From a bacterium (GTDB taxonomy: Bacteria > SAR324 > NAC60-12), in NCBI GenBank assembly GCA_965205865.1, contig CBDBHR010000030.1, positions 1 through 64,000 of the forward strand: DNA of 64,000 nucleotides, given 5' to 3'. Positions 3,967 through 57,930 of this stretch are shown here, one piece after another. The notes under the pieces were generated by a model. That model saw nothing but the letters and a program-made list of their open reading frames with translations. It was not told where the DNA came from and did not search any database. Made by a program: the position numbers and the translations under genes. Numbering within the stretch: the first letter of the stretch is position 1; every line of letters begins with the position of its first letter.

Positions 3967-6068
3967 CTAGATCCGGATATCCTGCAGATGGTAGTCTGTG
4001 AGACCCGCTTTTGCTTTGGGGGTCCAGCGGTAGGCTTTCTCTTGTCCTGCAAACGGTTTGTACACAAAAGGGGCTTCCTCCGGATACTGTTTTCGCCGGG
4101 CGTCGATAGCGTACATGATCAACCGCGAACGTTCACGGATATACGCCGCATCGTAGACGGCATCAGGATTGGCCTGCACTTTACTGGGCACATCCAACAC
4201 CGACTGACGCCGGTGGAAGCCGAAGTTGATGGTAACGCGAAGGTCGGAGCTGGTGTTCGCGAAGGAACCATGAAGGATCTGACGGTTGCAGATGACGACA
4301 TCCCCTGGATTGCAGATCAGCGGCATGGCATCGGGCAACCGGTCCGACCCCGCTTCCTCAGCCCTGGCTTTGATGTCTGCCTTGCCTTGCCGATGAGATC
4401 CCGGCACCACCCATACACCATTTGCGGCATTGCACCCATAGAGTTGTGCCATGAAATTGAAGCCGTGGGTGTTTTCATCGAGATCGTGGTTGTCCCAATG
4501 GGTGACGCCATCCTGGTGCCAGGCGACGGAACCACCCAGTCTGGGATACTTGATCCACAAACCCTCATTGAATGGAGTGAAATCCTCGCCGTTGATCGCT
4601 TCAGCAATGGCAAGGAGTTGGGGATGTCCATAAACGTGCAGGCAGGTCTCAGAAAACTGCAAGGAACCATTGATGTATTGTATTACAAACTCCGGGGCAT
4701 CTTCCGATGCCACTGGTTCAAACATCTTGACCTGGTGACGACTATGATTTTTGGTGGTTCCCCCAGCCTCATCTGAAAGGGGCTTGACCCAACTAATGTC
4801 TTGCAATTGGCAAGCTGCATTGAAGGCCGGGCGTCCCTGATGATCGACTTGCGCACCTTTAGAACTTATCCTTTAATAACTTGAAAATTGGTATTTCCTG
4901 CATTATTTTTGTCATCATGTTCAACCATAAACGCATGGAGGCTATATGGCAAAAGTACAGTCGTGGGAAGTATCTGATTCATTTTGGGCCAGAGTGGAGC
5001 CACTGATACCAAAACCCAAACGTGACCCGAACAAGACCTACAAGCGCAAACCCGGTGGTGGTAGAAAGCCAATGCCTGCGCGCCAAATTTTCGAGGGAAT
5101 TGTATATGTTTTGCGCACCGGTTGTCAATGGAGAGCCCTTCCCAAGGAAAAATATGGGAGTCCTAGTGCCATCCATGCTCATTTCATGCGTTGGAATGAA
5201 GCGGGTTTCTTTTTGTCGCTTTGGCAAGCCGGACTTGCCGAATATGATGAGATGGAAGGGATCTCCTGGAAATGGCAAAGCATAGACGGCACGACTGTCA
5301 AAGCCCCACTGGCTCAGGAAACCGTTGGTCGAAACCCGACTGACAGGGGAAAAAAAAGGGAGCAAGCGTCATTTGCTGGTTGACGGCCGTGGTGTCCCGC
5401 TGTCCCTCGTCGTAACCGGGGCGAACCGGCATGATGTGACACAGTTGGAATTGGTCTTGGAGGAAATCGTCATTGCGCGGCCTGAGGGCATTGAACAACA
5501 TCTGTGTGCAGACAAAGGCTACTACGGTGAGCCAGCATCACAGATAATTCGATCCAATGACTATGTGCCACATGTGAAAAAACGGGGTGAAGAGATTCAA
5601 GAAAAAAAAGCAAATCCCCAATACAGACCCAGAAGATGGGTCGTCGAGGTGAGCCATTCATGGTTCAACAGGTTTCGCAAGATAATGGTCCGATTCGAAA
5701 AATATAATCAAACTTATCTCGCACTGCTTCAATTGGCTGCAGCTATCATAACTTACAGGAAAGTTAATGTTATTTAAGGATAAGTTCTTAGTCACCGGTG
5801 CATGGTCCAGCAGATCGGCCAGATCTTGTTCGATGTCCTGGAGTTCCTCTTCTTTGAGAATCCCTTCGAAAATGTAGAACCCGTTGCGTGAATAGGATTG
5901 AAGGATGACCGGATCAAGACGGCCTTCTTCATCAAAACGGATCGCACTTCGGTTGTCGAGTACCAAAGCGCGTCGGGTGCCCTCCTCCCGATAACGAACC
6001 ATGGCTGATTCTTCTGTCCCATAATCCACAAGGACGCTCTTTTCTAAAGATGGATGATCTATACTCAT
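3967..6068 (-). pseudogene. Phytanoyl-CoA dioxygenase family (2OG-Fe) gene split by IS5
   Basis: WHQD, VVPGSH, HGSFAN..R motifs. Removing the IS rejoins HAPVTK-GAQVDHQGRPAF..LQDISW in frame. Confidence 0.88.
4862..5787 (+). mobile_element. IS5-family element with two-ORF transposase (4946-5383, 5325-5777) joined by probable -1 programmed frameshift
   Basis: Near-perfect IRs GAACTTATCCTT(T/A)AATAAC; TSD TTA. Motifs LRTGCQWRALP, IDG, ADKGY, RWVVE. GGGG-A8-GGG slippery site at about 5346-5360. Confidence 0.92.
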
Positions 6069-9336: not shown

Positions 9337-10413
9337 ATGATTACCAAAAAATGGTCAGAATGGCGCACTTGGGAGAATTGGAAGAAAATGGCCTCTCAGC
9401 AGATCGAAGAGCGTGGCCTTACTAAAAATCTGGATGAGATTGAAGAGCAGGGATTCACCGTGATCACCCCTGAGCAAATGGGCGACACTCGCCTGTTAGA
9501 GCAAACCAAAGAAGCGCTCTTACGGGTTGGGGAAGAAATCACTGGGGTGCGGCCCGATGAAGAGACCGGGGAACATGGTTTCACCGACAACATGGCACCA
9601 ACCAAACCCAAAATTGGTACTTCGGGTTTATGGAAAAGGATCCGATTATTGAGGAAATCATCCAGCATCCCCTGACTCTGCCCTTGATAGATTACTACCT
9701 GGGTTCCGGTTGCCTGCTTTCCGCGTTCAACGGGATTGTCAAATGGCAGGACCCGGTGGGCTATGGGCACACAATGGGCTTACATGCCGATACCCACCTC
9801 TATCCTTTTGAACCGCTTCCCGATCCCCCAATGGTGTTCAATACAAACTGGTGTCTGATCGATTATACCAAAGACAATGGCGCCCTGGCGATCGTCCCGG
9901 GATCCCATAAACTCCGCCGCCACCCCAAGCCGGGTGAGGAGGTGGATCAGGCCATCGCTGTCGAAGCACCCGCGGGTTCGGTCATTGTTTTCATAGGCAC
10001 CCTCTTGCACGGAGCCTTTCCTCGGATCAATCCAGGTTTTCGATTGTGGGTCACCGCTTATTACAGTGCCTTCTACTGCCGCACGCAAGAGCATTACCCC
10101 CAGCCGGATTTCGGAAGAAAATCTGGCTCGCAATGGGGAGCGGTTCCGTCAACTGCTCAAAATCGATGAAGTCTGGAATTTTGAAGATCCTCGGGGGCCT
10201 ATTCCCCCGTGGGAGCGAACCTCCGGAAAAACGTATGGCCAAATCATGAATCAGATCGTCACCCACCATGGAAAAAAGTTTCGCGTTGAAACTGACCACT
10301 CCATCGTAAATCATGCGGAGGGAGTGCGCTACATCCCCATCGATGGCGAAGAAAATGAGGAATCACTCGATCAGTCCAAGGAAACGATAGGCCTCCCCCC
10401 GGGACTAAGATAG
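9337..10413 (+). pseudogene. Phytanoyl-CoA dioxygenase family gene with two frameshifts
   Basis: Three consecutive ORF pieces (9337, 9630, 10066); LHAD, IVPGSH, LLHG motifs. Confidence 0.75.
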
Positions 10414-10425
10414 ACCTTATTACAA

Positions 10426-10865
10426 CCTAAATTGAGCGATTCTGAAAAAGGATCAGATTTTCAAGATGATTTTTTTGCTTGAGAAATGCAATCGTTCTGA
10501 AATCAGATTTTGATCATCAAATCCATGGAAGTTGGAGTGAGAATGAGCATCAAAATGCTGTTTTCAGATGTGGAAAGTCTTCATTTCTCATGTCATGGAC
10601 GCACTCATCCCCTTAAACTTTAATGTTTTTGTTTTTTAGTTGAAGCGAAACCCGTTGATCAGATTGGCGCCAATGCATGCTGGCAGGTGGCAAATAGTTG
10701 GTCCAATTGCAAGCGCTCAAAGGTCGTTTTGGGTACTTTCAAGATCAATTTTCCGGCATGATGAACCGGTTTGCCTGCCGTATCAAGAAACTGGCGCCGG
10801 AAGGTATCAGCATACATCGTTACCACAATCACTGGCTTGCTGACATCTTCTTTGAAGGCTTCGAA
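10426..10865 (-). mobile_element. Partial, diverged IS1380-family copy (3' end only)
   Basis: Similar to 11256-11696 including the IR CCTAAATTGAGCGATTC; breaks just before AAAAGGGGTCAAAC. Confidence 0.85.
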
Positions 10866-11094: not shown

Positions 11095-11255
11095 AAAAAT
11101 GAAGAAATAATCCGTTCACAGTATAACATCAGTTATAAGGAGACCCTATGCCCTGAAAAGTTGCTTACCGGAGGACACGGGGTGGCCGTGTTGGAATACG
11201 AAGATCGCCCGTTGGCGCCCAATTTAACAAATTTAAAATTCAATTGTAAATAATT

Positions 11256-13007
11256 CCCAAATTGAGCGATTCTAAAAAAGGATCAGATTTTCAAGATGAT
11301 TTTTTTGCCTGAGAAAGGCAATCATTCTGAAATCAGATTTTGATCATCAAATCCATGGATGTTTGAGTGAGAATGAGCATCAAAATGCTGTTTTCAGATG
11401 TGGAAGGTCTTCATTTCTCATGTTTTGGACGCACTTATCCCCTTAAACTTTAATGTTTTTGTTTTTTAATTGAAGCGAAACCCGTTGATCAGATTGGCGC
11501 CAATGCGTGCTGGCAGGTGGCAAATAGTTGGTCCAATTGCAAGCGCTCAAAGGTCTTTTTTGGTATTTTCAAGATCAGTTTTCCGGCATGACGAAGCAGT
11601 TTGCCTGCCGTATCAAGAAACTGGCGCCGGAAGGTATCAGCATACATCGTTACCGCAATCACTGGCTTGCTGACATCTTCTTTGAAGGATTCGAAGAGGT
11701 TATTGCCAAGCAGCATCAGATAGTACCATGCGGTATTGGAAATGAAGTCCTTGAAGGGAAGTTGTTGATGACCAAAGTTTTTCAGCGCCCGGTTGGCCAG
11801 TTCATCCTTTCCCCGTCCGTGGTACGAGCCAAGGATGCTATGAGCATCGATGCGCTTTTCTTCAGCGGCTTGGCTGAGTTGGCCATCAATGGCCTCTCCC
11901 ATACCAAGGTTCGTAATGATCACGCCATCATGATCCAAACCCGGCAAAGAGAGTTGGCTATCGTGTTCAATCAAGCGGCTGTAGATCGTGCGACGAGCCT
12001 TCTTCCATGTCCCCTGCTGGCTCTTAAACTCGGTGTACTGCCAGATCTCCTTCTTGCCCGATGAAGTGAAGGTCTGCCAGTCAGTGGCTTCTTCCGCAGC
12101 ATTCCTCACATTGGCATAGGACTTTCCTCCGCTTCAGCTAACCGATGTTCAGTCGTTCACAGGTTTCAAAGATTTTTTCGTCAAAAAAACCGGTGTCCAT
12201 GCGCACCATGATTGGTACATCATCTCGGTATTGGCGGCGAATCCTTTTCACGATATGAACCAGCATATTCTGAACAGTTTTCCCGTGATTCGAATGTTTG
12301 CTACCTCCGCGAAAAACTGCGTCAACCATATAACGACCCCAATTCATCTGCAGGGGATGAAATCCTTTGACCATCTTGTAAGTCGGCTGGACACCATGGC
12401 GTTTCAGGGCATCATCATTATCAAGTACCATCGAATCCAGACCCAACACAATCACCGTTGGACAAGTCTTCTTCAGTCTCCAGATAAACAGTATCTGCAG
12501 CAGATGACGAAACAGGTAGACTCGTACAAAAGAGAACTTTCCAAAAAATCTTTTCACGGCATGCGAGGAGGCAAGGTCTTGCTCACTGCATGACAGCAAG
12601 GCGGCATAACCCTCGCCCCTTTTGAGGTGATCGAACCAACTGAGATGACGGCTGCTGCCGTCCATGAAAAAACAGAGGATCTGCACAAAAAAATCAGAGA
12701 CAGCAATTCCTTTTTTATTTTTACGCATCGAACCAAACAACCTTTCGATGATCGGCATCAGCCGAATGCTTTGCAGATACTGGGCAAACAAGGCCAATCC
12801 GGCACGACTTGTCAAGTGTTCATCGGTTGGCTGAATGGCATCAATTATCTGTTTCTTTTTATCCTGAACTGTTATATTTTTTTCCATAAAGCTCTCTACC
12901 TGTTGGGTTGTGTTAGATTTTGTGAATTTTTTTATTTTAACCACTGAAATATAACACATTTTTCCCAAGGTTGGGAGCTTTTTTTATTACGAATCGCTCA
13001 ACTTAGG
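11256..13007 (-). mobile_element. IS1380-family element copy 1 (1752 bp), transposase split into two ORFs
   Basis: IRs CCCAAATTGAGCGATTC / CCTAAGTTGAGCGATTC. Motifs TSRAGL, LDS, RMDTGF, YHGRGKDE. Flanks TAATT/AAATT. Confidence 0.9.
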
Positions 13008-13424
13008 AAATTGTAACTGCCGCCTCTCTGCGCCTGTATATCTTTTTCGTTGCCCGGATACTCGATCTTCAAATTGGCGGCAAAATCGCGATGGAGCTCG
13101 GGTGGCAGAACCTGCTCATAGGGCATGTCGCTGAGTTCCCGCAGGCTTTCGATGATCGTCGTTCCAGGTGCAAAGACCAGCGCATTTTTCATAAACTTGC
13201 CCTCGGGGTAACGCAAAGACATAGCAAACTCGGTGACGACATTACGTAACTTCCAGTCTGTAGATATGCTTGATCAAAATACTTTTCATGTTAACATGAT
13301 CTATGATATCTTAGCAATGTTTATTGTTTCACAATACAGTTTCTAATGAAATCAGGTAAAAATAGAAAGCATGATCTTGTATTCGTGACTCTAAATAATG
13401 AGCAAATGAAATATGCAAAACAAG

Positions 13425-13582
13425 TTAAGGAATGAAATTTAAATAAGTTAGAAGTATGGATACGCAAAATTAGGGGACAGGTAACAGCAGGAAAACAGTA
13501 GAGTTGGGATGCCGCTGTACATGTCCCCCAATTTTGCTCACACCATTGGAAGAATTACAGGTTATTTAAGGTTTGTTCCTAA
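13425..13582 (-). repeat. Inverted-orientation copy of the GGGGACA palindromic repeat (family A) with flanks
   Basis: Reverse complement of the units at 42206, 46188 and 52239, with small deletions. Confidence 0.85.
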
Positions 13583-13808
13583 GGGCAAAGAAAAATGGGC
13601 GTAATTTTTCAGATGTGATCGAATTTTGCTTGTGTATTTCTGGAAATGCTTATTGGGTTGATGATATTCATAGTGGATACGGACATTCGTTACAATCGCC
13701 ATAAATACAGTATGCAGCGTGTCTCTTTATGGTTTTTGCAGTTTTTGATTTTCATAAGAAGCGATTTAGTTGCATGCGATAGATGCGGCATCGTGGAGAG
13801 TAACTGAC

Positions 13809-14510
13809 ATGCGAATTGAACCTGGTATCAGCGGAGTCAGCATCGTCTTTTTAGGTACTTTTAATCCGGCTATTTTCACTCCTGCCTGGTTTGCACTGCA
13901 TAAATTACTTTCTAAAAGCGTTGCGGAATGCGCGGATTTACAGATAGCGAATCCGTGGATAACGGTATTTACCGCTGATTGGCTTAGCCTGCGGGTAGGG
14001 ACAGAAAAGTTTTCGGCTGAGACCTCTCAGGCGCCCCATGTTCGTGTATGTGACCTTGTCATGCGCGTTTTCAAGGAACATCTGTACCATACGCCTCTTA
14101 AAGCCTTCGGTATCAATCGTGAAATTCATTTTCAAGTGGAAAGTTTCGCTGAACGTGATCGTATTGGAAGGACTTTGGCACCGGTGACGTCGTGGGGAGC
14201 TTGGAGTAAGGAACTCGGTACGGATGGCAAAAATGGTGGAATGACATCTCTGACTATGACACAAATCAATCCCGAAGGAAGGCCTGCAGGAGGACAAATC
14301 AACGTTAAGGTAGAACCATCTCAGCGGGTGGGTGGCGGACAAAATGGAGTTTATGTCAGCGTCAACGATCACTACGTCACTGACAAAACTGGTCCCGAAA
14401 TGGTGGTGGAATTAATGAGATTACTTGAGGATAACTTTGAAAATTCTATAAGGCGTAGCGAAGAGATCGTCAATCACATTATGTCATTGGCGAAAAGTCA
14501 CGAGGATTAG
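13809..14510 (+). CDS. Hypothetical protein, TIGR04255-like
   Basis: RBS GGAGAG before ATG 13809; SIVFLGTFNPAIFTPAWF, AFGIN and VNDHY motifs recalled from this family. Confidence 0.6.
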   Translation: MRIEPGISGVSIVFLGTFNPAIFTPAWFALHKLLSKSVAECADLQIANPWITVFTADWLSLRVGTEKFSAETSQAPHVRVCDLVMRVFKEHLYHTPLKAFGINREIHFQVESFAERDRIGRTLAPVTSWGAWSKELGTDGKNGGMTSLTMTQINPEGRPAGGQINVKVEPSQRVGGGQNGVYVSVNDHYVTDKTGPEMVVELMRLLEDNFENSIRRSEEIVNHIMSLAKSHED

Positions 14511-14514
14511 TTTC

Positions 14515-15123
14515 ATGCCGACAGTCAGTCAATCAACCACAACTCTGAACATCGCACCTTCGAAGCAGAATATCAGTTCTTATGCAGCTATCACACAGGA
14601 TGCTGTACATACCCCCGATGAGGCAATTAAAAAAATTTTATCGAATTGTACGAATGCTGCCTTAACAACCAGCGTATACGAGCATCACGAAGCTACGATA
14701 AACCGACATTCATTTGTTGATCAAGGACAGGATAACAAAAACCTCGAACCCGGCGAAATTTTAAACTTTCCGAATCCACGTCGTCATCGTACCGTGACCT
14801 TTCATGCTCTTCAAGAATGGGAAGGCTATGTCACCGAAATCAATGATACGAATTTCACTGCAAATTTGATTGACCTGACGGCTGGTGCATCATTTGAGAA
14901 AGAAGAAGCTGATATTCCTATCGATGAATTATCGGAAGAGGATGCCTCAAAGATGCTGGTCGGGAGTATTTTTCGATGGGTGATTGGTTACGAAAGATCG
15001 GTATCAGGAACCAAGAAACGTGTCTCCCACATCGTATTTCGCGATCTACCTGCAATAACCAAGTCCGACTTACGAGCAGGGGAGGAGTGGGCGCGTAAAA
15101 TCATGGAAGCATTTAAGCCGTGA
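14515..15123 (+). CDS. Hypothetical protein (C-terminal beta-rich domain LQEWEGYV..GSIFRWVIGYE)
   Basis: 202-aa ORF tightly packed between its neighbours (4-nt gap; GTGA overlap). Confidence 0.7.
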   Translation: MPTVSQSTTTLNIAPSKQNISSYAAITQDAVHTPDEAIKKILSNCTNAALTTSVYEHHEATINRHSFVDQGQDNKNLEPGEILNFPNPRRHRTVTFHALQEWEGYVTEINDTNFTANLIDLTAGASFEKEEADIPIDELSEEDASKMLVGSIFRWVIGYERSVSGTKKRVSHIVFRDLPAITKSDLRAGEEWARKIMEAFKP

Positions 15124-16211
15124 CGGGATCCCTAGCCGCGAGAAGCGCACCACGCCAAAATGAATTTGAGGTAACGTTATTCGGCCCGGGTTATGGGGAG
15201 AGCCTTGTCCTGCATATTGGTGATGGTAACTGGGTAATCATCGATTCATGTATCGACAGTGAGGGGAATCCAAGAGCTTTGAAGTATCTCGACAGCATCA
15301 GTGTCAACCCAACGCAAGCAGTAAAACTAATCGTAGCGACTCACTGGCATGACGATCATATACGCGGGATGACTGAACTGGTCGAAATCTGCTGTAACTC
15401 CAGTTTCTGTTGTGCTACCGCGCTCTGCAATCAAGAGTTTCTTGCCGCCATTGCTGCATTGGAAGGTCGCCACTTTTCAGTTAACGGTTCCGGAGTCCGA
15501 GAAATATACCGAGTAATCACTCAACTTGAATCCAGGGTTTCAAGGCCGACTTTCGCAATCGCAAACCGTCGCATCTACAACCAAAACAACTGCGAAATAT
15601 GGTCGCTTTCTCCTGATGATTCCGCCATCCGGAACTTCTTGAAATCCGCAGGTAATCTGTTCCCCCGAGAGGGCAAGGTTAAGAACCGAATTCAATCTAT
15701 TTCTCCTAATGATGCCGCAGTTGCGCTTTGGGTCGAGGTAGATGATGTTGGGGTATTGCTCGGTTCGGATTTGGAAAAACACGGTTGGATAAGAATTCTA
15801 CAAAATCAAGCACGGCCATCCGGCAAGGCATCGATATTCAAGGTTCCCCACCATGGTTCGAAAAATGCTCACGTTCCAAATGTTTGGAAACAGATGATTG
15901 AACCTGATCCCTTCGCAATACTCACACCTTGGCGCAAGGGCGGAGGAATCTTACCAACGCAACAAGATGTACGACGAATTCTTTGTGAAACGAAAAATGC
16001 ATATATCACCGCGAAGCATGACTCTCTAACCCGGTCGTCTGCGCGCAGAAACCCAACCATTTCTAAAACAATCCGTGAATCAGGCGTTAAACTACGCCAG
16101 CAGGTCATGTCATCCGGAGCGATTCGATTAAGGCGGCCGATCAATTCTCGAATGGGATGGAAGGTCGAGACATTTGGTTCTGCTTGCCATCTCCGTGAGT
16201 TAGCCATATAG
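15120..16211 (+). CDS. Metallo-beta-lactamase-fold hydrolase, ComEC/Rec2-like putative nuclease
   Basis: GYGES, IDS, THWHDDH (HxHxDH), LLGSD and KVPHHGS motifs; no signal peptide or TM segments seen. Confidence 0.85.
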   Translation: MTGSLAARSAPRQNEFEVTLFGPGYGESLVLHIGDGNWVIIDSCIDSEGNPRALKYLDSISVNPTQAVKLIVATHWHDDHIRGMTELVEICCNSSFCCATALCNQEFLAAIAALEGRHFSVNGSGVREIYRVITQLESRVSRPTFAIANRRIYNQNNCEIWSLSPDDSAIRNFLKSAGNLFPREGKVKNRIQSISPNDAAVALWVEVDDVGVLLGSDLEKHGWIRILQNQARPSGKASIFKVPHHGSKNAHVPNVWKQMIEPDPFAILTPWRKGGGILPTQQDVRRILCETKNAYITAKHDSLTRSSARRNPTISKTIRESGVKLRQQVMSSGAIRLRRPINSRMGWKVETFGSACHLRELAI

Positions 16212-16471
16212 CGTAGTTTGCCCATCCCAAAGTATCCGAGCAAGAAGTTTCGCCCTTTCAAAAAGCTCGTCATGGATGAAATCCCGTACGTCCCTTGGAC
16301 GAAAATGTCACCTATCGAGCCTGGCGCAAACTCGTCAAGGGCATGCTGAAATTTCCCGCGCCGATTCTGCGGAACGTCCGGATGGATCAGTGACTGAATT
16401 AGAAGGTCCGTAAAAAGGAGGGGCGACGACGAATCCCGTGCTTCAGGCCGACAGTCTGTTGGTAGGAATCT

Positions 16472-17344
16472 TTATCTGTTTCCCGGTGGCTCGTCGTCGC
16501 GAATGCGCAAGAAGACCGGGAACCGCGGTTTGCCCGTGGCGGTGAATCCTTGGTGCTTGAAGGTGACGGTAGTGCCAATGGGCGGCGGATTCTTATGCTC
16601 TTCGTCGGAAAACCCGCTGCCAATTCTAATGATGGCGCCCTGCGCAGTTCGCACCGTGACACTTCCCATCAGCCCGGCGAGCCTTCCCCGGCCGGGATTG
16701 TGGGTGATCACGATTCCTTCCGCGTCATCGAATCGTTTCAGTTTCAATAAATCCATGCTGCGCCCGCCATGGTAGCGAGAGTCGCCACGATGCAGCATCA
16801 GTCCTTCGCCACCGTTGGCAACGACGGTGTCCAGCTTTTCCAGCAGCGACTTGTGGTCAGGAAATTTGCGCTGTTCGATGACGGTGAGAAATTCGCTTGC
16901 CGATGCAGCGACGGCGGTCCGCAGATTTTGCAGCCGTTCATCAAACGTACCGGGGTCTTCGGGCAAGTCAAAGACCATGTAGCGCACTTGTCGCCAGCCG
17001 TCGTGTGGCGTGTGGCGGGATACGATGGATGCCGTCTCTTCAAACTGCCCGCGCCCGACCCACAGCTCGCCATCCAATACGACAGACGGGAAGTCGGCGG
17101 TAAACCACGATGGCGCCGCAAAGGTGTTGCCGCCACGCGAAATCAGCTGTTTGCCGTCCCAGAACGCCCGCACGCCGTCCAGTTTTTCGCTCACCCAATA
17201 GGCAGCAAGGTCAATATCCTCGTGGTATTTTTCAGCGAGGAGCAGAGCCGGCTTGTCTTCGGCGACAACCGCCGTCGTGAGAAGAATCGCGAGAATAACG
17301 CCTGTGGCGGGGGAAACAGATAACCTGAATAAAACGCGCTTCAT
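16472..17344 (-). CDS. ATP-dependent DNA ligase with N-terminal signal peptide (Lig E type)
   Basis: SEKLDGVRA, LDGEL, VFDLP, GEGLML, LLKLK and OB-fold IGSGFSD motifs; hydrophobic leader ending AVVA. Confidence 0.9.
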   Translation of the reverse strand: MKRVLFRLSVSPATGVILAILLTTAVVAEDKPALLLAEKYHEDIDLAAYWVSEKLDGVRAFWDGKQLISRGGNTFAAPSWFTADFPSVVLDGELWVGRGQFEETASIVSRHTPHDGWRQVRYMVFDLPEDPGTFDERLQNLRTAVAASASEFLTVIEQRKFPDHKSLLEKLDTVVANGGEGLMLHRGDSRYHGGRSMDLLKLKRFDDAEGIVITHNPGRGRLAGLMGSVTVRTAQGAIIRIGSGFSDEEHKNPPPIGTTVTFKHQGFTATGKPRFPVFLRIRDDEPPGNR

Positions 17345-17747
17345 CTTTGGGTTCCTTGCTTAATCACCGTGGCCTTTCCAAGGACGCATAGTGCGATAGT
17401 ATGCTGTTTTTTCGGAATGACGTCGCTTATGGATCAATGAATGATTCTCTCGAACTAAACGCTTGAAATGAAAACAATATCTTCCGACTTGAATCTTCCT
17501 GAGTCACAACAGAAAATTGATCTTGAAAGTAGCCAAAACTACCTTTGAGGGCATGCAGTTGGATCGACTGTTTGTCACATGCCGGCAAGCATTGGCGTCG
17601 ATTTGATCAACTGCTTTTGTTTCTATAAAAAAGCACTAGAGCTAAAGAGAATGAATGCGTCCACAATATGAGAAATGAAACCCCAGAGAATTCCTTCAAT
17701 GTCGACTTCGTTTTGGACATGGTAACAATGCCTGAACTCTCATCCGT

Positions 17748-17878
17748 AGGGAAGATGTGTTATATTTCAGGGAGTAAAAACAAAATTACGACAAAATCTG
17801 ACACGACCCAGCAGGTAGAAAACTTTAAAAAGATACAACAATTCAGGATAAAAAGAAACAGAAAATTGATGCCATTCT
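17748..17878 (+). mobile_element. Degenerate IS1380 5' remnant
   Basis: Similar to 56168-56320 (ATGTGTTATATTTCAG..CAGGATAAAAAGAAACAG..ATTGATGCCATTC). Confidence 0.6.
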
Positions 17879-18226: not shown

Positions 18227-18877
18227 ATGCCCAACATACTCACAATCCCGACTCTCAAAGCCGAAGCAACTGACTTTGCGCGTCAGGAATCCACCCATCT
18301 GGAGCCGTCGTTGTTTGGTGTTACCGACGGGAAGGCTGTTGGCACCTATCTGGAGCACAAATTCCAAGCCTACCTCCAAACCAAATATGAATACATAGAA
18401 GGTTCTTCAGCAAAAGGGATAGATTTTCCAGAATTGGGAGTCGATATCAAGGTCACCAGTATTCGCCAGCCACAATCATCTTGTCCTTTCAAGTCGTCAC
18501 GGCAGAAAATTTATGGGCTTGACTACAATCTTCTGGTCTTCGTCTACGAGAAATCCGATGCCGAACAGACACACACGGGACGACTGAATATTCTACACAC
18601 CGTTTATATCGACCAGTCCAGAACATCCGACTTTCAAACTACATCAGGACTTGTCAAAATCATTGAAAACAGAGGGAACATCGACGACATAGTTGCATTT
18701 TTCGGCGAGCGAATGCTTCTCCTCGACGACGTTCAGGCTCAAGCGCTTGCCGAAGAAGTGCTGGAAAACCCACCTCAGATTGGGTATTTGACAATCTCGA
18801 ACGCACTTCAATGGCGGCTGCAATACAGACGTGTTATCCAACAAGCAGGAATCGTGACGGGAATCGACGCACTATGA
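18227..18877 (+). CDS. Type II restriction endonuclease (PD-(D/E)XK)
   Basis: GIDFPELGVDIK catalytic-like motif; ATGA overlap with the methyltransferase. Confidence 0.75.
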   Translation: MPNILTIPTLKAEATDFARQESTHLEPSLFGVTDGKAVGTYLEHKFQAYLQTKYEYIEGSSAKGIDFPELGVDIKVTSIRQPQSSCPFKSSRQKIYGLDYNLLVFVYEKSDAEQTHTGRLNILHTVYIDQSRTSDFQTTSGLVKIIENRGNIDDIVAFFGERMLLLDDVQAQALAEEVLENPPQIGYLTISNALQWRLQYRRVIQQAGIVTGIDAL

Positions 18878-20400
18878 GCGCTAAAAAGGAATTTGGAGAT
18901 TTTCAGACCCCCGATGGTCTGGCCCACAAGGTTACCATGCTGGTGGCAGATATTTTCGGAACTCCTGATTTGGTCGTGGAACCAACCGCGGGTTTTGGAG
19001 CTTTTCTCGCAGCATCCGTTGATCAATGGGGGCGGGATTGCCACTACGAGGGATATGAAGTCAACCGGCAATATGTTGACCTCGCTTGCAATCGCCTGGA
19101 AGGACTTGGGGTTGAGCTATTTCATCGCGATTTCTTCTCCGAGGACTGGAAACACAATCTCAACAGAAGCGGAGCGAAAAGGGTTCTTGTCATCGGCAAT
19201 CCCCCTTGGGTTACCAACTCTGATCTAGGTCTTCTGGGGAGTAAAAACCTTCCCAAGAAGATGAATTTTCAGGGCTTACGAGGGTTTGATGCACGCACCG
19301 GAAAGTCCAATTTTGACATCGCCGAGTGGATGTTGATCCGGTTGATCGAGGCTCTGCCTGCGGAGGGGGTCGTTGCAATGCTGTGTAAGACGATGACGGC
19401 CCGAAAAGTTTTGCGCCATTTCTGGAAGAGCGACGGAGGACGAGAGAACTCCTGTCTATTTCAGATAGATGCCAAGGCTGCATTTGACGTTGCGGTTGAT
19501 GCTTGTCTTTTCATGACGACCGGACAAGTCATCAATGATCGAATAGCCACTGTTTTTTCTGATCTTGATATTTACTCCAATTCTACGCAGTTCGGCTTCA
19601 TCGACGGAGACCTTGTATCAGATATCACGACGTATATGAGGCGCAGGGACTTTGATGGCGGTTCTTCGGCATATACATGGCGATCGGGAATCAAGCACGA
19701 TGCAGTCAAGATCATGGAATTCACCCACGACGGACGTCTGTTGCGCAACGGACTGGGAGAAGCAGTCGAATTAGAAAAAGAGCTTATTTACCCGCTTCTG
19801 AAGTCCTCAGATCTGGGGAATGGACGGATCATTCCTCGTAAGTGTGTGCTGCTCACTCAACATCATACAGGGGACGATACCTCGATCATCGAGTCCATCG
19901 CGCCAAAGACGTGGAAGTATTTGCTCTCGCATAGCGAAGCCCTTGATGGACGGCGAAGCTCTATTTACCAGAATCGCCCCCGATTTTCAGTATTCGGTAT
20001 TGGACGTTATTCGCTCGCACCTTGGAAGGTGGCAATTTCCGGACTCTACAAGTCATTCGGGTTTGTTGTTGTACCGCCAATCAATGATCGTCCCGTCATG
20101 ATTGATGATACGTGCTACTCGATTCCGTGCCATACAGAGGCAGAGGCCAATCTATTGTGCGAGCTACTATCCTCAGGATCGGCTATTGAGTTTCTCAGTT
20201 CGCTTGTATTCACAGATTCAAAACGTCCCATCACCATAGATGTGCTCCGGCGCATATCCATAGTCGAAGTGGCAAGGCACCTCGAAAGGTTGCATGAGCT
20301 TCAGTATTTTATTCACTGCGGAGTTCCCGACGAAAGCACTGAGCAGCAGATGTCTCTACTCATGGAGCCGAAACAAAAATATCGCATAAGACGGGATTGA
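18874..20400 (+). CDS. Amino (N6A/N4C) DNA methyltransferase
   Basis: GDFQTP, VEPTAGFGAF (SAM binding) and IGNPPW (motif IV). Confidence 0.88.
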   Translation: MSAKKEFGDFQTPDGLAHKVTMLVADIFGTPDLVVEPTAGFGAFLAASVDQWGRDCHYEGYEVNRQYVDLACNRLEGLGVELFHRDFFSEDWKHNLNRSGAKRVLVIGNPPWVTNSDLGLLGSKNLPKKMNFQGLRGFDARTGKSNFDIAEWMLIRLIEALPAEGVVAMLCKTMTARKVLRHFWKSDGGRENSCLFQIDAKAAFDVAVDACLFMTTGQVINDRIATVFSDLDIYSNSTQFGFIDGDLVSDITTYMRRRDFDGGSSAYTWRSGIKHDAVKIMEFTHDGRLLRNGLGEAVELEKELIYPLLKSSDLGNGRIIPRKCVLLTQHHTGDDTSIIESIAPKTWKYLLSHSEALDGRRSSIYQNRPRFSVFGIGRYSLAPWKVAISGLYKSFGFVVVPPINDRPVMIDDTCYSIPCHTEAEANLLCELLSSGSAIEFLSSLVFTDSKRPITIDVLRRISIVEVARHLERLHELQYFIHCGVPDESTEQQMSLLMEPKQKYRIRRD

Positions 20401-40145: not shown

Positions 40146-41897
40146 CCCAAATTGAGCGATTCTAAAAAAGGATCAGATTTTCAAGATGATTTTTTTGCCT
40201 GAGAAAGGCAATCATTCTGAAATCAGATTTTGATCATCAAATCCATGGATGTTTGAGTGAGAATGAGCATCAAAATGCTGTTTTCAGATGTGGAAGGTCT
40301 TCATTTCTCATGTTTTGGACGCACTTATCCCCTTAAACTTTAATGTTTTTGTTTTTTAATTGAAGCGAAACCCGTTGATCAGATTGGCGCCAATGCGTGC
40401 TGGCAGGTGGCAAATAGTTGGTCCAATTGCAAGCGCTCAAAGGTCTTTTTTGGTATTTTCAAGATCAGTTTTCCGGCATGACGAACCAGTTTGCCTGCCG
40501 TATCAAGAAACTGGCGCCGGAAGGTATCAGCATACATCGTTACCGCAATCACTGGCTTGCTGACATCTTCTTTGAAGGATTCGAAGAGGTTATTGCCAAG
40601 CAGCATCAGATAGTACCATGCGGTATTGGAAATGAAGTCCTTGAAGGGAAGTTGTTGATGACCAAAGTTTTTCAGCGCCCGGTTGGCCAGTTCATCCTTT
40701 CCCCGTCCGTGGTACGAGCCAAGGATGCTATGAGCATCGATGCGCTTTTCTTCAGCGGCTTGGCTGAGTTGGCCATCAATGGCCTCTCCCATACCAAGGT
40801 TCGTAATGATCACGCCATCATGATCCAAACCCGGCAAAGAGAGTTGGCTATCGTGTTCAATCAAGCGGCTGTAGATCGTGCGACGAGCCTTCTTCCATGT
40901 CCCCTGCTGGCTCTTAAACTCGGTGTACTGCCAGATCTCCTTCTTGCCCGATGAAGTGAAGGTCTGCCAGTCAGTGGCTTCTTCCGCAGCATTCCTCACA
41001 TTGGCATAGGACTTTCCTCCGCTTCAGCTAACCGATGTTCAGTCGTTCACAGGTTTCAAAGATTTTTTCGTCAAAAAAACCGGTGTCCATGCGCACCATG
41101 ATTGGTACATCATCTCGGTATTGGCGGCGAATCCTTTTCACGATATGAACCAGCATATTCTGAACAGTTTTCCCGTGATTCGAATGTTTGCTACCTCCGC
41201 GAAAAACTGCGTCAACCATATAACGACCCCAATTCATCTGCAGGGGATGAAATCCTTTGACCATCTTGTAAGTCGGCTGGACACCATGGCGTTTCAGGGC
41301 ATCATCATTATCAAGTACCATCGAATCCAGACCCAACACAATCACCGTTGGACAAGTCTTCTTCAGTCTCCAGATAAACAGTATCTGCAGCAGATGACGA
41401 AACAGGTAGACTCGTACAAAAGAGAACTTTCCAAAAAATCTTTTCACGGCATGCGAGGAGGCAAGGTCTTGCTCACTGCATGACAGCAAGGCGGCATAAC
41501 CCTCGCCCCTTTTGAGGTGATCGAACCAACTGAGATGACGGCTGCTGCCGTCCATGAAAAAACAGAGGATCTGCGCAAAAAAATCAGAGACAGCAATTCC
41601 TTTTTTATTTTTACGCATCGAACCAAACAACCTTTCGATGATCGGCATCAGCCGAATGCTTTGCAGATACTGGGCAAACAAGGCCAATCCGGCACGACTT
41701 GTCAAGTGTTCATCGGTTGGCTGAATGGCATCAATTATCTGTTTCTTTTTATCCTGAACTGTTATATTTTTTCCCATAAAGCTCTCTACCTGTTGGGTTG
41801 TGTTAGATTTTGTGAATTTTTTTATTTTAACCACTGAAATATAACACATTTTTCCCAAGGTTGGGAGCTTTTTTTATTACGAATCGCTCAACTTAGG
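40146..41897 (-). mobile_element. IS1380-family element copy 2 (1752 bp), split transposase
   Basis: Near-identical to copy 1; flanks TATGA/TTTGA. Confidence 0.92.
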
Positions 41898-42153: not shown

Positions 42154-42205
42154 GATCCCACTAAAGAACAAACCTTAAATAACCTGTAATTCTTCCAATG
42201 GTGTG

Positions 42206-42457
42206 AGCAAAATTGGGGGACATGTACACTGCCGCGCATCCCAACTCTACTGTTTTATGCCTGCTGTTACGTGTCCCCTAATTTTGAGCAAAATTGGGGG
42301 ACATGTACACTGCTGCGCATCCCAACTCTACTGTTTTATGCCTGCTGTTACGTGTCCCCTAATTTTCAATGGTGTGAGCAAAATTGGGGGACATGTACAC
42401 TGCTGCGCATCCCAACTCTACTGTTTTATGCCTGCTGTTACGTGTCCCCTAATTTTG
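42206..42457. repeat. Three tandem ~81-bp palindrome-ended units (family A)
   Basis: Unit AGCAAAATTGGGGGACATGTAC..GTTACGTGTCCCCTAATTTTG at 42206, 42287 and 42377. Confidence 0.93.
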
Positions 42458-42587
42458 CGTATCCATACTTCTGACTTATTTAAATTTCATTCCTAAATGT
42501 CAGACTGAGACACTACCTCTTTTCTTCAGTTGACTACCTTCCCGGTATGAAGTCCGTACAATTTCGAAGACAATTTAATACTTGATC

Positions 42588-46142: not shown

Positions 46143-47000
46143 CTTAGGAACAAACCTTAAATAACCTGTAATTCTTCCAATGGTGTGAGCAAAATTGGGG
46201 GACATGTACACCGCTGCGTATCCCAACTCTACTGTTTTATGCCTGCTGTTACGTGTCCCCTAATTTAGCAAAATTGGGGGACATGTACACTGCTGCACAT
46301 CCCAACTCTACTGTTTTATGCCTGCTGTTACGTGTCCCCTAATTTTGCGTACATACTTCTAACTTATTTAAATTTCATTCCTAAATGTCAGACTGAGACA
46401 CTACCTCTTTTCTTCAGTTGACTACCTTCCCGGTATGTAGTCCGTACAATTCCGAAGACAATTTAATACTTGACCCCTTTTCAAATATGTCCAAACAAAG
46501 AAAAAAATAACCTGTAATTCTTCCAATGGTGTGAGCAAAATTGGGGGACATGTACACCGCTGCGTATCCCAACTCTACTGTTTTATGCCTGCTGTTACGT
46601 GTCCCCTAATTTAGCAAAATTGGGGGACATGTACACTGCTGCGTATCCCAACTCTACTGTTTTATGCCTGCTGTTACGTGTCCCCTAATTTTGCGTATCC
46701 ATACTTCTGACTTATTTAAATTTCATTCCTAAATGTCAGACTGAGACACTACCTCTTTTCTTCAGTTGACTACCTTCCCGGTATGTAGTCCGTACAATTC
46801 CGAAGACAATTTAATACTTGCCCCCTTTTCAAATATGTCCAAACAAAGAAAAAAATAACCTGTAATTCTTCCAATGGTGTGAGCAAAATTGGGGGACATG
46901 TACACTGCTGCGCATCCCAACTCTACTGTTTTATGCCTGCTGTTACGTGTCCCCTAATTTTGCGTATCCATACTTCTAACTTATTTAAATTTCATTCCTT
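46143..47000. repeat. Tandem composite repeat: five family A units in three modules with IS-end and GACAATTTAATACTTG(A/C)CCCC linkers
   Basis: Units at 46188, 46267, 46534, 46613 and 46882; module period about 347 bp. Confidence 0.92.
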
Positions 47001-47220
47001 AAGAAATCTGACTTGGCAGAATCTCGGTCACAGAATGGCTCAGCGTTTTGGAAAACAATCGATGGTTCATGGGCATCTTGGTTGCATGCGCATCGGCAAT
47101 CGGTGTTATTTTTGGAACAATCCTGGAAATTTTGTCAAATACTATGGGATAATTGCTGACAAATAGCAGAACAGACAGATTTATGTCGCTTGCCTTTGAA
47201 CGAGGAAAGCGGCATTTTTT

Positions 47221-51957: not shown

Positions 51958-52577
51958 ATTTACCTCCCCTTCTTTATTTCAAATACTTGTTAAAAGATGA
52001 TATTAATTTATCCCGTATAACAAGTTTTTTGTACATTTATCGTGAAAAAACGTCAACTTATCAACAAAATCGCAATTATCAGAACTTAAATGTCAGACTG
52101 AGACACTACCTCTTTTCTTCAGTTGACTACCTTCCCGGTATGTAGTCCGTACAATTCCGAAGACAATTTAATACTTGCCCCCTTTTCAAATATGTCCAAA
52201 CAAAGAAAAAAATAACCTGTAATTCTTCCAATGGTGTGAGCAAAATTGGGGGACATGTACACTGCTGCGCATCCCAACTCTACTGTTTTATGCCTGCTGT
52301 TACGTGTCCCCTAATTTTGCGTATCCATACTTCTAACTTATTTAAATTTCATTCCTTAAGAAATCTGACTTGGCAGAATCTCGGTCACAGAATGGCTCAG
52401 CGTTTTGGAAAACAATCGATGGTTCATGGGCATCTTGGTTGCATGCGCATCGGCAATCGGTGTTATTTTTGGAACAATCCTGGAAATTCTGTCAAATACT
52501 ATGGGATAATTGCTGACAAATAGCAGAACAGACAGATTTATGTCGCTTGCCTTTGAACGGGGGAAGCGGCATTTTTT

Positions 52578-55747: not shown

Positions 55748-57930
55748 GATTTTGCCTGCTCTTTTATAATTCCCCGTAAAACCATTGTCGAGTCTTTTTC
55801 CAAACCATTCTGAAAAAAACCGGACAGGCCAAACTTCAATGATTTTGATTTTGCCTGCTCTTTTTTAAATCCCCTTAAAACCAATGTCAACACCTTTTTT
55901 CAAACTGAAAAAAACGGACGAGCAAAACTTCAATGATTTTGCCTGACCTTTTTTAAAATACTATAAAGCCAATGCCAAGTCTTTTTTTCAAATCCCGAAA
56001 ACCCGACGAGCAAAACTTCAATGATTTTGATTTTGCCTGCTCTTTTATAAAGCACTATAAAGCCATTGCCAAGTCTTTTTTCAAATCTGAAAAAAACCCG
56101 ACCAGCAAAACTTCAATGATTCCGCCTGCTCTTTATTAAAACACTCCTAAGTTGAGCGATTCGTAATAAAAAAAGCTCCCAACCTTGGGAAAAATGTGTT
56201 ATATTTCAGTGGTTAAAATAAAAAAATTCACAAAATCTAACACAACCCAACAGGTAGAGAGCTTTATGGGAAAAAATATAACAGTTCAGGATAAAAAGAA
56301 ACAGATAATTGATGCCATTCAGCCAACCGATGAACACTTGACAAGTCGTGCCGGATTGGCCTTGTTTGCCCAGTATCTGCAAAGCATTCGGCTGATGCCG
56401 ATCATCGAAAGGTTGTTTGGTTCGATGCGTAAAAATAAAAAAGGAATTGCTGTCTCTGATTTTTTTGCGCAGATCCTCTGTTTTTTCATGGACGGCAGCA
56501 GCCGTCATCTCAGTTGGTTCGATCACCTCAAAAGGGGCGAGGGTTATGCCGCCTTGCTGTCATGCAGTGAGCAAGACCTTGCCTCCTCGCATGCCGTGAA
56601 AAGATTTTTTGGAAAGTTCTCTTTTGTACGAGTCTACCTGTTTCGTCATCTGCTGCAGATACTGTTTATCTGGAGACTGAAGAAGACTTGTCCAACGGTG
56701 ATTGTGTTGGGTCTGGATTCGATGGTACTTGATAATGATGATGCCCTGAAACGCCATGGTGTCCAGCCGACTTACAAGATGGTCAAAGGATTTCATCCCC
56801 TGCAGATGAATTGGGGTCGTTATATGGTTGACGCAGTTTTTCGCGGAGGTAGCAAACATTCGAATCACGGGAAAACTGTTCAGAATATGCTGGTTCATAT
56901 CGTGAAAAGGATTCGCCGCCAATACCGAGATGATGTACCAATCATGGTGCGCATGGACACCGGTTTTTTTGACGAAAAAATCTTTGAAACCTGTGAACGA
57001 CTGAACATCGGTTAGCTGAAGCGGAGGAAAGTCCTATGCCAATGTGAGGAATGCTGCGGAAGAAGCCACTGACTGGCAGACCTTCACTTCATCGGGCAAG
57101 AAGGAGATCTGGCAGTACACCGAGTTTAAGAGCCAGCAGGGGACATGGAAGAAGGCTCGTCGCACGATCTACAGCCGCTTGATTGAACACGATAGCCAAC
57201 TCTCTTTGCCGGGTTTGGATCATGATGGCGTGATCATTACGAACCTTGGTATGGGAGAGGCCATTGATGGCCAACTCAGCCAAGCCGCTGAAGAAAAGCG
57301 CATCGATGCTCATAGCATCCTTGGCTCGTACCACGGACGGGGAAAGGATGAACTGGCCAACCGGGCGCTGAAAAACTTTGGTCATCAACAACTTCCCTTC
57401 AAGGACTTCATTTCCAATACCGCATGGTACTATCTGATGCTGGTTGGCAATAACCTCTTCGAATCCTTCAAAGAAGATGTCAGCAAGCCAGTGATTGCGG
57501 TAACGATGTATGCTGATACCTTCCGGCGCCAGTTTCTTGATACGGCAGGCAAACTGGTTCGTCATGCCGGAAAACTGATCTTGAAAATACCAAAAAAGAC
57601 CTTTGAGCGCTTGCAATTGGACCAACTATTTGCCACCTGCCAGCACGCATTGGCGCCAATCTGATCAACGGGTTTCGCTTCAATTAAAAAACAAAAACAT
57701 TAAAGTTTAAGGGGATAAGTGCGTCCAAAACATGAGAAATGAAGACCTTCCACATCTGAAAACAGCATTTTGATGCTCATTCTCACTCAAACATCCATGG
57801 ATTTGATGATCAAAATCTGATTTCAGAATGATTGCCTTTCTCAGGCAAAAAAATCATCTTGAAAATCTGATCCTTTTTTAGAATCGCTCAATTTGGGACA
57901 CTATAAAGCCAATGCCAAGTTTTTTTTCAG
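55748..57930 (-). promoter_or_regulatory. Five diverged ~90-bp tandem repeats, each with a sigma70-like promoter facing the lipoprotein gene; fifth unit split by IS1380
   Basis: Units at 55748, 55847, 55935, 56029 and 56118. Minus-strand TCGACA/TTGACA/TTGGCA-N17-TATAAA/TAAAAA/TAATAA. Confidence 0.65.
56146..57897 (+). mobile_element. IS1380-family element copy 3 (1752 bp), split transposase
   Basis: Same IRs; perfect 5-bp TSD ACACT. Confidence 0.95.

Follow-up and report, generated by a model that had tools for sequence, protein, structure and literature searches.

Do the three tightly packed genes at positions 13,809 to 16,211 of a 64,000-nucleotide (nt) stretch of bacterial DNA encode an anti-phage system that has no name? 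The stretch, hereafter the window, comes from a bacterium of the SAR324 lineage (NAC60-12; GenBank assembly GCA_965205865.1, contig CBDBHR010000030.1, positions 1 to 64,000 of the forward strand), and the genes are called A, B and C in their order. An original prediction, made from the letters of the window, had read them as such a system, with the third gene encoding a nuclease of the ComEC/metallo-beta-lactamase (MBL) type. Our analysis leads us to regard A-B-C as a self-contained, horizontally mobile cassette whose most likely role, which we hold at evenly balanced confidence, is that of a defence module against phages or other mobile DNA. The computed support comes from gene order and coupling, the conserved active site of C, the homology of C, a predicted complex of the three proteins, residence in Hma loci and spread over phyla. 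The candidate unnamed defence operon of the original prediction is in this way supported by linkage, effector kinship, the predicted complex and the Hma association, while its role is one that we infer.

Protein C and its two partners

All three proteins have full-length homologues of nearly constant length (689 for A, 998 for B and 2431 for C), so that the genes are more than chance open reading frames (ORFs). Gene C encodes a soluble ComEC-type MBL-fold hydrolase, presumed to be a DNase effector. Pfam placed Lactamase_B at its N-terminus (8.5e-6), with Lactamase_B_2 as the only other family, and a PDB search with a profile of 62 C homologues returned ComEC MBL domains as the only relatives (9ic4_A, 6.4e-8; 30bt_A, 9e-7). 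The best PADLOC match was to LmuA (PDLC03854, 2.1e-15) and was nearly end-to-end, with residues 16-303 of C against profile positions 3-319 of 345; further matches were to RTasMBL (1.1e-13), PDC-M48B (1.6e-7) and Avs1a (1.8e-5). The LmuA, RTasMBL and Avs1a models appear to represent MBL partners, judging from model lengths and papers, as PADLOC lacks descriptions. With respect to the HxHxDH and PHHGS metal motifs named in the original prediction, H75 is kept in 61 of the 62 aligned sequences and H77, D79, H80, D217, H244 and H245 in all 62. The PDB and PADLOC matches likewise favour the proposed assignment of C as a probable ComEC/MBL nuclease. C is longer than the ComEC domain 9ic4_A by about 40 residues between the two aligned blocks and by about 50 at the C-terminus, and it carries conserved loops at about residues 117-128 and 175-196. 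No membrane segment was found in A, B or C using 19-residue Kyte-Doolittle windows (maxima of 1.47, 0.62 and 1.51, respectively), in agreement with the earlier statement that C lacks a membrane domain.

Protein A was matched by no Pfam, NCBIfam or PADLOC family, and a PDB sequence search with its profile gave nothing better than E 0.4. The label TIGR04255-like, given to it in the original prediction, did not hold: the TIGR04255 hidden Markov model (HMM), whose presence in the library copy is unverified, matched none of 62 close members (E<=10) and none of 114 divergent members (E<=1), and no NCBIfam family at E<=1 was found for the A protein of the window. The nearest ESM Atlas cluster is auto-named TIGR04255 (0.97, 238 of 256 features), with a recognition value of 1996, which lies below the mark of 2300 and is weak. 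A literature search found no paper naming TIGR04255 and none naming DUF7680, a family that is met below. The family to which A belongs is large, since its profile, searched against 1.84 billion representatives, recovered 2321 clusters (50% identity) at E<=1e-3 and 440 at E<=1e-30. The AlphaFold2 (AF2) model of A is confident (predicted local distance difference test, pLDDT, 84.6; predicted template modelling score, pTM, 0.81) and resembles two-layer alpha/beta pseudo-dimers, with Foldseek matches to AdoMetDC/prozyme, RepDE, McsB and TBP at E about 2e-4 and a template modelling (TM) score of about 0.3. In a viral structure library the top match by far was an unnamed protein of 202 amino acids (aa) (BFVD A0A515MGR4; E 8.6e-10, TM 0.57/0.64, 17% identity), followed by giant-virus TBP-like proteins; A0A515MGR4 may be a phage-borne relative or a mimic. 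Residues G16, P20 and W27 are invariant, D82, N103, S171 and N186 are present in at least 90% of the 114 divergent members, and D82, S171, N186, D187 and H188 are kept in 82-95% of them. A reading of A as a Ser/His/Asp hydrolase was considered on the basis of these conserved residues and is not favoured, as S171 and H188 are placed at opposite hairpin ends in the secondary structure of the model, which does not suggest a triad.

Protein B matched no Pfam, NCBIfam or PADLOC family beyond a chance-level Pfam match to HVO_B0008_N (E 0.076, 13.3 bits against a cut-off of 27), and a PDB sequence search with the B profile gave no match. In the alignment the N-terminal 90 or so residues are variable and residues 97-193 are highly conserved. 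The AF2 model follows the same division, with pLDDT below 50 for residues 1-32 and 44-82 and of 81-93 for residues 91-200. Residues from about 95 to 200 are predicted to form a five-stranded barrel with a terminal helix. The nearest folds found by Foldseek were LysRS chains (E 0.012), eIF5A and a HIN domain, none at E<=0.001; we take these to be OB-type barrels. The modelled barrel thus fits the small beta-barrel partner that had been proposed, through a weak match, and the failure of A and B to match any Pfam, NCBIfam or PADLOC family is in line with the claim that the set corresponds to no named system.

Structure prediction of A, C and residues 88-202 of B, with B as the scored partner, suggests that the three proteins bind one another. 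The complex score was 0.76, compared with 0.30 for the best of three controls, and it dropped to 0.30 when C was swapped for an unrelated protein. Among 157 solved complexes 116 attain a score at this level, as do 2 of 215 mismatched pairs, counts which apply only roughly here because our own alignments and three chains were used; the result therefore supports binding and does not show it. At least 90% of contacts agreed between runs, and the pLDDT of B was at least 81. In the model B is the bridging subunit, lying between A and C. Its predicted contacts on C are at residues 25, 45-49, 82, 103-143, 182-192, 273-274 and 304-330, mostly in segments absent from ComEC and in neighbours of the invariant residues Y25/G26/E27, D42/S43/C44 and H80. 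On A the modelled contacts (4-9, 35-37, 73-93 and 200) correspond to the N-terminal strand and to the helix 73-93, which holds the near-invariant residues D82, F88 and L92.

Conservation and genomic company of the cassette

Related loci were collected by a genome scan seeded on A with two peptide patterns, which reaches close relatives. The scan confirmed 120 relatives of A, and the locus counts given here rest on the best 80 of these 120. All 80 loci are from metagenome-assembled genomes with phylum labels supplied by the submitters, and in 12 of them the flanking sequence is shorter than 10 kb on one or both sides. B was found after A in all 80 loci, and C or a fragment of C after B in 78, the exceptions being L040, where the contig ends, and L078, which has none. 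Conserved linkage had been set beforehand as a check on the predicted operon; with the order kept in 78-80 of the 80 loci, it brought no refutation. All three genes were apparently intact in 66 loci. The junctions were compared in 79 cassettes (78 loci and the window): the 4-nt overlap between B and C was projected in 56 of them, and a gap of 2-13 nt separates A from B in 49. One protein of 438 aa (P0363) is a natural A-B fusion, with the A part at residues 1-230 and the conserved B domain at 311-436, the latter being 63% identical to B of the window; it could reflect loss of a stop codon, yet an A-B fusion is evidently tolerated.

Other arrangements were seen in individual loci. At L009 a 2784-nt ORF (11272-14055) takes in roughly the first 125 residues of C and extends as far as the helicase gene; an ORF for the methylase alone was not detected there, and the arrangement looks like a deletion. 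L064 has, besides its intact cassette, a second and degraded A-B remnant some 5 kb away in reverse orientation (4090-4697, minus strand). At L043 an insertion of about 1.35 kb (11247-12595) separates B from a split C, with a DDE_Tnp_1 transposase just downstream.

The cassette is in our reading horizontally mobile, and the phyla that carry it are intermixed on its tree. By submitter labels the 80 loci span 11 phyla, the names among them including Latescibacterota, Entotheonella, Binatia, Foliamicus, Bryobacterales, Vicinamibacterales, Gemmatimonadota, Nitrospira, Dehalococcoidia and Spirochaetia. We take this mix to be typical of marine sponge and coral microbiomes, and it would suggest exchange within one habitat. 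A tree was built from the joined A and C sequences of 47 loci and the window, the other 33 loci being excluded because at least one of the three proteins did not reach 90% HMM coverage in a single ORF; many of these exclusions are attributed to the variable N-terminus of B. On this tree the phylum labels need 18 changes, compared with a minimum of 7 and a shuffled mean of 25.8.

With respect to neighbouring genes, a recurrent company of the cassette was a co-oriented series in the order DUF499/HmaC ATPase, DUF7680 protein, A-B-C, DUF1156/HmaB N6-methylase and HKD-SNF2 helicase. The ATPase, of about 1000 aa, matched PADLOC HmaC (2.9e-95) and the methylase HmaB (4.2e-66), while the helicase, which has an N-terminal PLD/HKD domain and a SNF2 part, matched PLD_Helicase (7.9e-68) and HmaA (2.4e-54). 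Linkage was counted when a component lay within 10 kb of the cassette; at least one co-oriented Hma part was present in 24 of the 80 loci, which supplies the defence context that the neighbourhood check had looked for. A script found the cassette sandwiched between Hma parts in 16 loci, and inspection by eye added L074 and L067, which makes 18. The DUF7680 gene (about 160-234 aa), for whose product there was no PADLOC match, stands between the DUF499 ATPase gene and the cassette in 16 loci (L006, L009, L016, L036, L039, L046 and L071 among them), directly so in 13. Hma linkage is unclustered on the A and C tree, requiring 15 changes against a shuffled mean of 14.7, with 326 of 500 shuffles as low; either cassettes often enter or leave this locus, or the host system is often lost.

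Hma has been described as a restriction-modification (R-M)-like defence system in which HmaA gives E. coli protection from T4; inserted genes, Septu, PARIS and Ppl among them, are reported for 66.5% of hma loci, so that the locus is a hotspot for defence genes (PMC11232893). The same locus type has been treated as DUF499-centred 'BREX-related' (BR) systems, those of type 2 being described with a helicase that bears an N-terminal HKD domain and with a further small gene, named as DUF3780 (PMC12839542). Our loci resemble type 2 in that their helicases carry the N-terminal HKD (PLD) domain as described. They differ in the small gene by the ATPase, which is DUF7680 here and DUF3780 in the paper, a comparison made by name and position only. 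The cassette itself is outside the three core parts of that system, and the window has none of these parts nearby. Back-up nucleases of the HNH, PD-(D/E)XK, TOPRIM/OLD, HEPN, PIN and Schlafen types are described as recurrent in BREX and BR loci (PMC12839542, NAR 2026). The terms 'mbl', 'lactamase' and 'comec' occur 0 times each in the main text of PMC12839542; its supplement tables may hold an MBL entry. The word 'lactamase' appears 99 times in the PMC11232893 supplement, where the 32 instances inspected concern generic MBLs (RNase J and glyoxalase, for example).

Enrichment of defence genes was measured locally by comparing, on each side, the ORF closest to the cassette (120 aa or longer) with the outermost ORF, a PADLOC hit being counted at E<=1e-10. 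Flanking ORFs of the relatives were clustered and cluster representatives scanned, so that for 34 of the 154 nearest ORFs the PADLOC status comes from the cluster representative and not from an individual scan. Hits were found in 30 of 154 nearest ORFs and in 6 of 129 outermost ones (odds ratio 5.0, Fisher p = 1.4e-4). Other PADLOC-positive neighbours were NsnC, PDC-S28, PtuA, PDC-S01 (twice), capP, a type IIG enzyme, mad2 (twice), PDC-M38B and PDC-M41B, and a type III methylase lies directly downstream in four Latescibacterota loci. Among the large flanking ORFs without a PADLOC hit, most of those with a Pfam match were over-extended ORFs of housekeeping genes.

Possible roles of the cassette

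Comparison with known systems places C near a recently described group of effectors. The ComEC-like MBLs of Hachiman, AVAST and Canu are reported to be latent DNases, in which two inserted loops obstruct the active site; on infection a linked trypsin-like or caspase protease cuts the loops, and indiscriminate DNA degradation follows, with the same nuclease-protease gene pair also reported in Lamassu and DRT systems (PMC12799240; bioRxiv 10.1101/2025.09.03.673762). C resembles these nucleases in being a soluble ComEC-like MBL of similar size, encoded by a separate gene and carrying, relative to ComEC, extra segments near the active site. In contrast to them, it has no adjoining protease gene, its partners are TBP-like and OB-like, and the nuclease gene stands last, whereas theirs is upstream. 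No protease domain was found in A or B using Pfam, NCBIfam and PADLOC, and the fold of A is TBP/AdoMetDC/RepDE-like. Any gating of C would be in trans by B or by some other route. The published cut sites of the relatives, S128/129 and S191/192 with a catalytic D73 (bioRxiv 10.1101/2025.09.03.673762), fall near the segments 119-143 and 182-192 at which B contacts C (D79); this nearness is one of residue numbering only and serves as a lead.

Similarities to other named systems were more limited. Canu (CanABC) is likewise a set of three genes in which the MBL nuclease comes last and the small product of the middle gene is complexed with that of the first (PMC12799240), but CanA is a caspase with an Ig-like domain, and A has neither a caspase signature nor a caspase fold. 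ComEC/Rec2 shares the HxHxDH and KVPHHGS-type motifs with C and provides its best PDB sequence match, whereas C has 363 aa, is soluble, lacks the competence channel and scores 19.9 bits with NCBIfam TIGR00361 against a cut-off of 190. With 6A-MBL, listed in one preprint among jumbo-phage defence systems of Pseudomonas aeruginosa, C has in common the MBL fold and a weak local match (1.2e-5), but its score with NF058524 is 24.6 bits against 220 and the cassette holds no corresponding partner. The analogy with Avs1 drawn in the original prediction survives as a loose one: C does match the Avs1a model of PADLOC, but with NCBIfam it reaches 24.8 bits against a cut-off of 420, and the cassette has no STAND NTPase. 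Lamassu differs in its LmuB SMC-like ATPase and LmuC, neither of which is present here, and A and B match no PADLOC model.

By its PADLOC matches C belongs to the wider group of these ComEC-like MBLs, and no protease is present, which is why we propose control by the partners A and B. In the defence reading C would be a ComEC-type MBL DNase effector. The barrel and helix of B would dock on C at the rim of the active site, on segments which ComEC lacks, and would also hold A, so that the A-B-C complex would keep the nuclease in check or away from the cell's own DNA. A, perhaps together with the disordered tail of B, would respond to infection; upon this trigger the DNase would be released or directed onto DNA and phage replication would stop, possibly at the cell's cost. 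The DNase activity, the inhibition by B, the sensing by A and the outcome for the cell are all what we infer. A more specific version, which we consider doubtful, is that gating is protease-free, with the B barrel acting in trans on residues of about 117-143 and 175-196 of C, where the protease-activated relatives carry inhibitory loops in cis, and with A as the infection sensor that causes B to release C. On this view the cassette would represent a new and widespread system with a preference for type-2 BREX-related loci, passed between phyla of a single community type.

A number of points weigh against a defence role or against this mechanism. A and B match no defence family, so that the case rests on effector kinship and context, and C falls far under every curated cut-off (Avs1a, 6A-MBL and ComEC). 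The known defence MBLs need a linked protease, and since none is detectable here their mechanism is not simply transferable. The complex score is a measure of model confidence which lies outside the calibration of the method, and the correspondence between the B contacts and the gating loops is one of residue numbering only. With respect to context, the enrichment near defence genes that had been proposed as a check stands overall, but when Hma-cluster ORFs are left out the counts become 12 of 120 against 6 of 129 (p = 0.14), which is not significant; the signal comes mainly from the Hma loci, which are non-independent observations. Most of the non-Hma loci examined adjoin housekeeping genes (transporters and metabolic enzymes), and damaged copies with split, truncated or missing genes were found in 14 of the 80 loci. 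Finally, these loci are close relatives by sequence, and any extension to the 2321-cluster A family would be an extrapolation.

Several rival explanations draw on the same data. The cassette may be an accessory or back-up nuclease of Hma that needs the ATPase, methylase or helicase of its host, the stand-alone copies being orphans left after loss of the host system. Its constant, co-oriented site between the DUF7680 and methylase genes in 16-18 loci of several phyla speaks for such a dependence, as does the recurring theme of back-up nucleases in BREX and BR loci (PMC12839542). We nevertheless judge it unlikely, in view of the 56 loci out of 80 without an Hma component within 10 kb (12 of the 80 having less than 10 kb on a side), the 66 loci with three intact genes, the intact copy in the window without Hma genes, the random distribution of Hma linkage over the cassette tree and the absence of MBL nucleases from the main text of PMC12839542. 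Another explanation that we find improbable is a toxin-antitoxin-like addiction module, in which C would be the toxin, B a labile antitoxin and A a stabiliser, kept on mobile DNA by post-segregational killing and not specialised against viruses. The tight coupling of the genes would suit it, as would the modelled position of B at the rim of the C active site, the disordered and variable tail of B, the finding of the cassette as a lone insert with housekeeping genes around it and transposases close by, including the insertion sequence (IS) copies in the window, and its patchiness across phyla. Neither Pfam nor PADLOC gave a toxin or antitoxin family match, however, and the preference for defence loci (24 of 80) is left unexplained by addiction alone. 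Addiction and defence roles are compatible with each other.

A pro-nuclease system of the Canu kind, with A as an unrecognised protease, B as its partner and C as a gated pro-DNase that is cut on activation, would account for the shared layout of an MBL nuclease in last place behind a small middle protein complexed with the first (PMC12799240). The conservation of D82, S171, N186, D187 and H188 in A could be read in the same direction, as could the position of the C loops at about 117-128 and 175-196 near the published cut sites, by numbering only (bioRxiv 10.1101/2025.09.03.673762). It is rendered very unlikely by the lack of a Pfam protease domain in A, by a fold resembling TBP, AdoMetDC and RepDE and not a caspase or trypsin, and by the modelled separation of S171 and H188. 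The lowest probability, a very slight one, is given by us to housekeeping DNA processing (uptake, repair or recycling) by a ComEC-like nuclease whose partner is a DNA-binding subunit of OB type, with the neighbouring ligase as a possible participant. The nearest solved relatives of C are indeed ComEC nuclease domains, the B barrel resembles OB folds and an ATP-dependent ligase gene follows on the other strand, but no ligase is recurrent in the 80 loci, the patchy cross-phylum distribution and the 14 damaged copies are unlike a core function, and the Hma link would go unexplained.

Under the defence reading, what would be new is an MBL-nuclease defence module with non-protease partners from undescribed families. 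Only recently were ComEC-like MBLs recognised as latent DNases that serve several defence systems, a linked protease being the switch in every case, and the cassette could reveal a second route of control. If this is true, it would give a first function to the A family and to the unannotated relatives of B. The conserved site in Hma/type-2 BR loci offers a concrete case in which to ask whether 'guest' modules cooperate with their hosts, and the spread over 11 phyla of uncultured bacteria may make the cassette a marker of gene flow within a community.

The cassette in the window

The features of the window are collected in Table 1. The original prediction had described three intact, tightly packed ORFs, and the coordinates, the 4-nt gap between A and B (TAG-TTTC-ATG) and the GTGA overlap between B and C were all read as described. 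The start of gene A was placed at the ATG and not at a longer TTG start (13770), because the homologues begin at MRIEP. The GGAG site lies 10 nt ahead of this ATG, and the leader is the sole non-coding stretch common to the window and a related locus, L001 (88.9% over 63 nt). Promoter-like sites were not above chance (3 found against 5.8 expected), one of them being on the cassette strand (13667-13696); the same scan found 0 terminator-like sites against 4.4 expected by chance, and Rfam gave 0 matches at E<=1 in 12900-17600.

Table 1. Positions of the cassette and of surrounding features in the window
Feature	Position	Strand	Details
Gene A	13809-14510	+	ATG start, 233 aa
Gene B	14515-15123	+	ATG start, 202 aa
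Gene C	15120-16211	+	GTG start, 363 aa
GTGA overlap of B stop and C start (translational coupling)	15120-15123	+	Read directly; GTG start and TGA stop
Leader of gene A	13746-13808	+	Includes GGAG ribosome-binding site, 13795-13798
Dispersed repeat unit, about 120-150 nt	~13425-13583		~225 nt upstream of gene A
IS, DDE_Tnp_1_4 transposase split into two ORFs	11256-13010	-	Upstream of cassette
Two further IS copies	40146-41897, 56145-57897	-	Three copies 99.8% identical
ATP-dependent DNA ligase, 290 aa	16472-17344	-	DNA_ligase_A_M and DNA_ligase_OB_2
Type II restriction enzyme	18227-18877		PADLOC REase_II 3.4e-94
Type II methylase	18811-20400		PADLOC MTase_II 7.5e-144

No Hma components lie near the cassette in the window, where the neighbours are an IS, the ligase gene, a type II R-M pair and transporters. 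The R-M pair had been placed 2 kb away, and it begins 2016 nt downstream of the cassette. Neither of its genes has a Pfam match, and the listed ORFs overlap by 67 nt, so that the methylase may start later. The ligase gene, which encodes a hydrophobic, signal-like N-terminus, converges on the cassette from 260 nt downstream. A functional link between the two was rejected, because no ligase recurs as a neighbour in the 80 loci.

The description of most neighbours as pseudogenes was checked in part, and a PhyH-like ORF was seen to be truncated and the IS transposase split. The PhyH-like dioxygenase gene (9337-10169) is apparently truncated or split, its 179-aa ORF corresponding to profile positions 98-211 of 213. 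A partial IS, consisting of a duplicated 440-nt end, lies at 10426-10865, and older inverted IS-like remnants are present at 17512-17682 and 17749-17877. The cassette and the ligase gene are thus bracketed by the complete upstream IS and these inverted remnants (17512-17877). A composite-transposon reading of this arrangement was judged weak, because the remnants share only 76-83% identity with the IS. The repeat that the cassette had been said to follow, there called family A, is probably the unit of up to about 150 nt found upstream of gene A. It recurs at least nine times in the window at 90-95% identity, and elsewhere it forms short arrays (42166-42494, 46143-47002 and 52210-52359), always in the opposite orientation.

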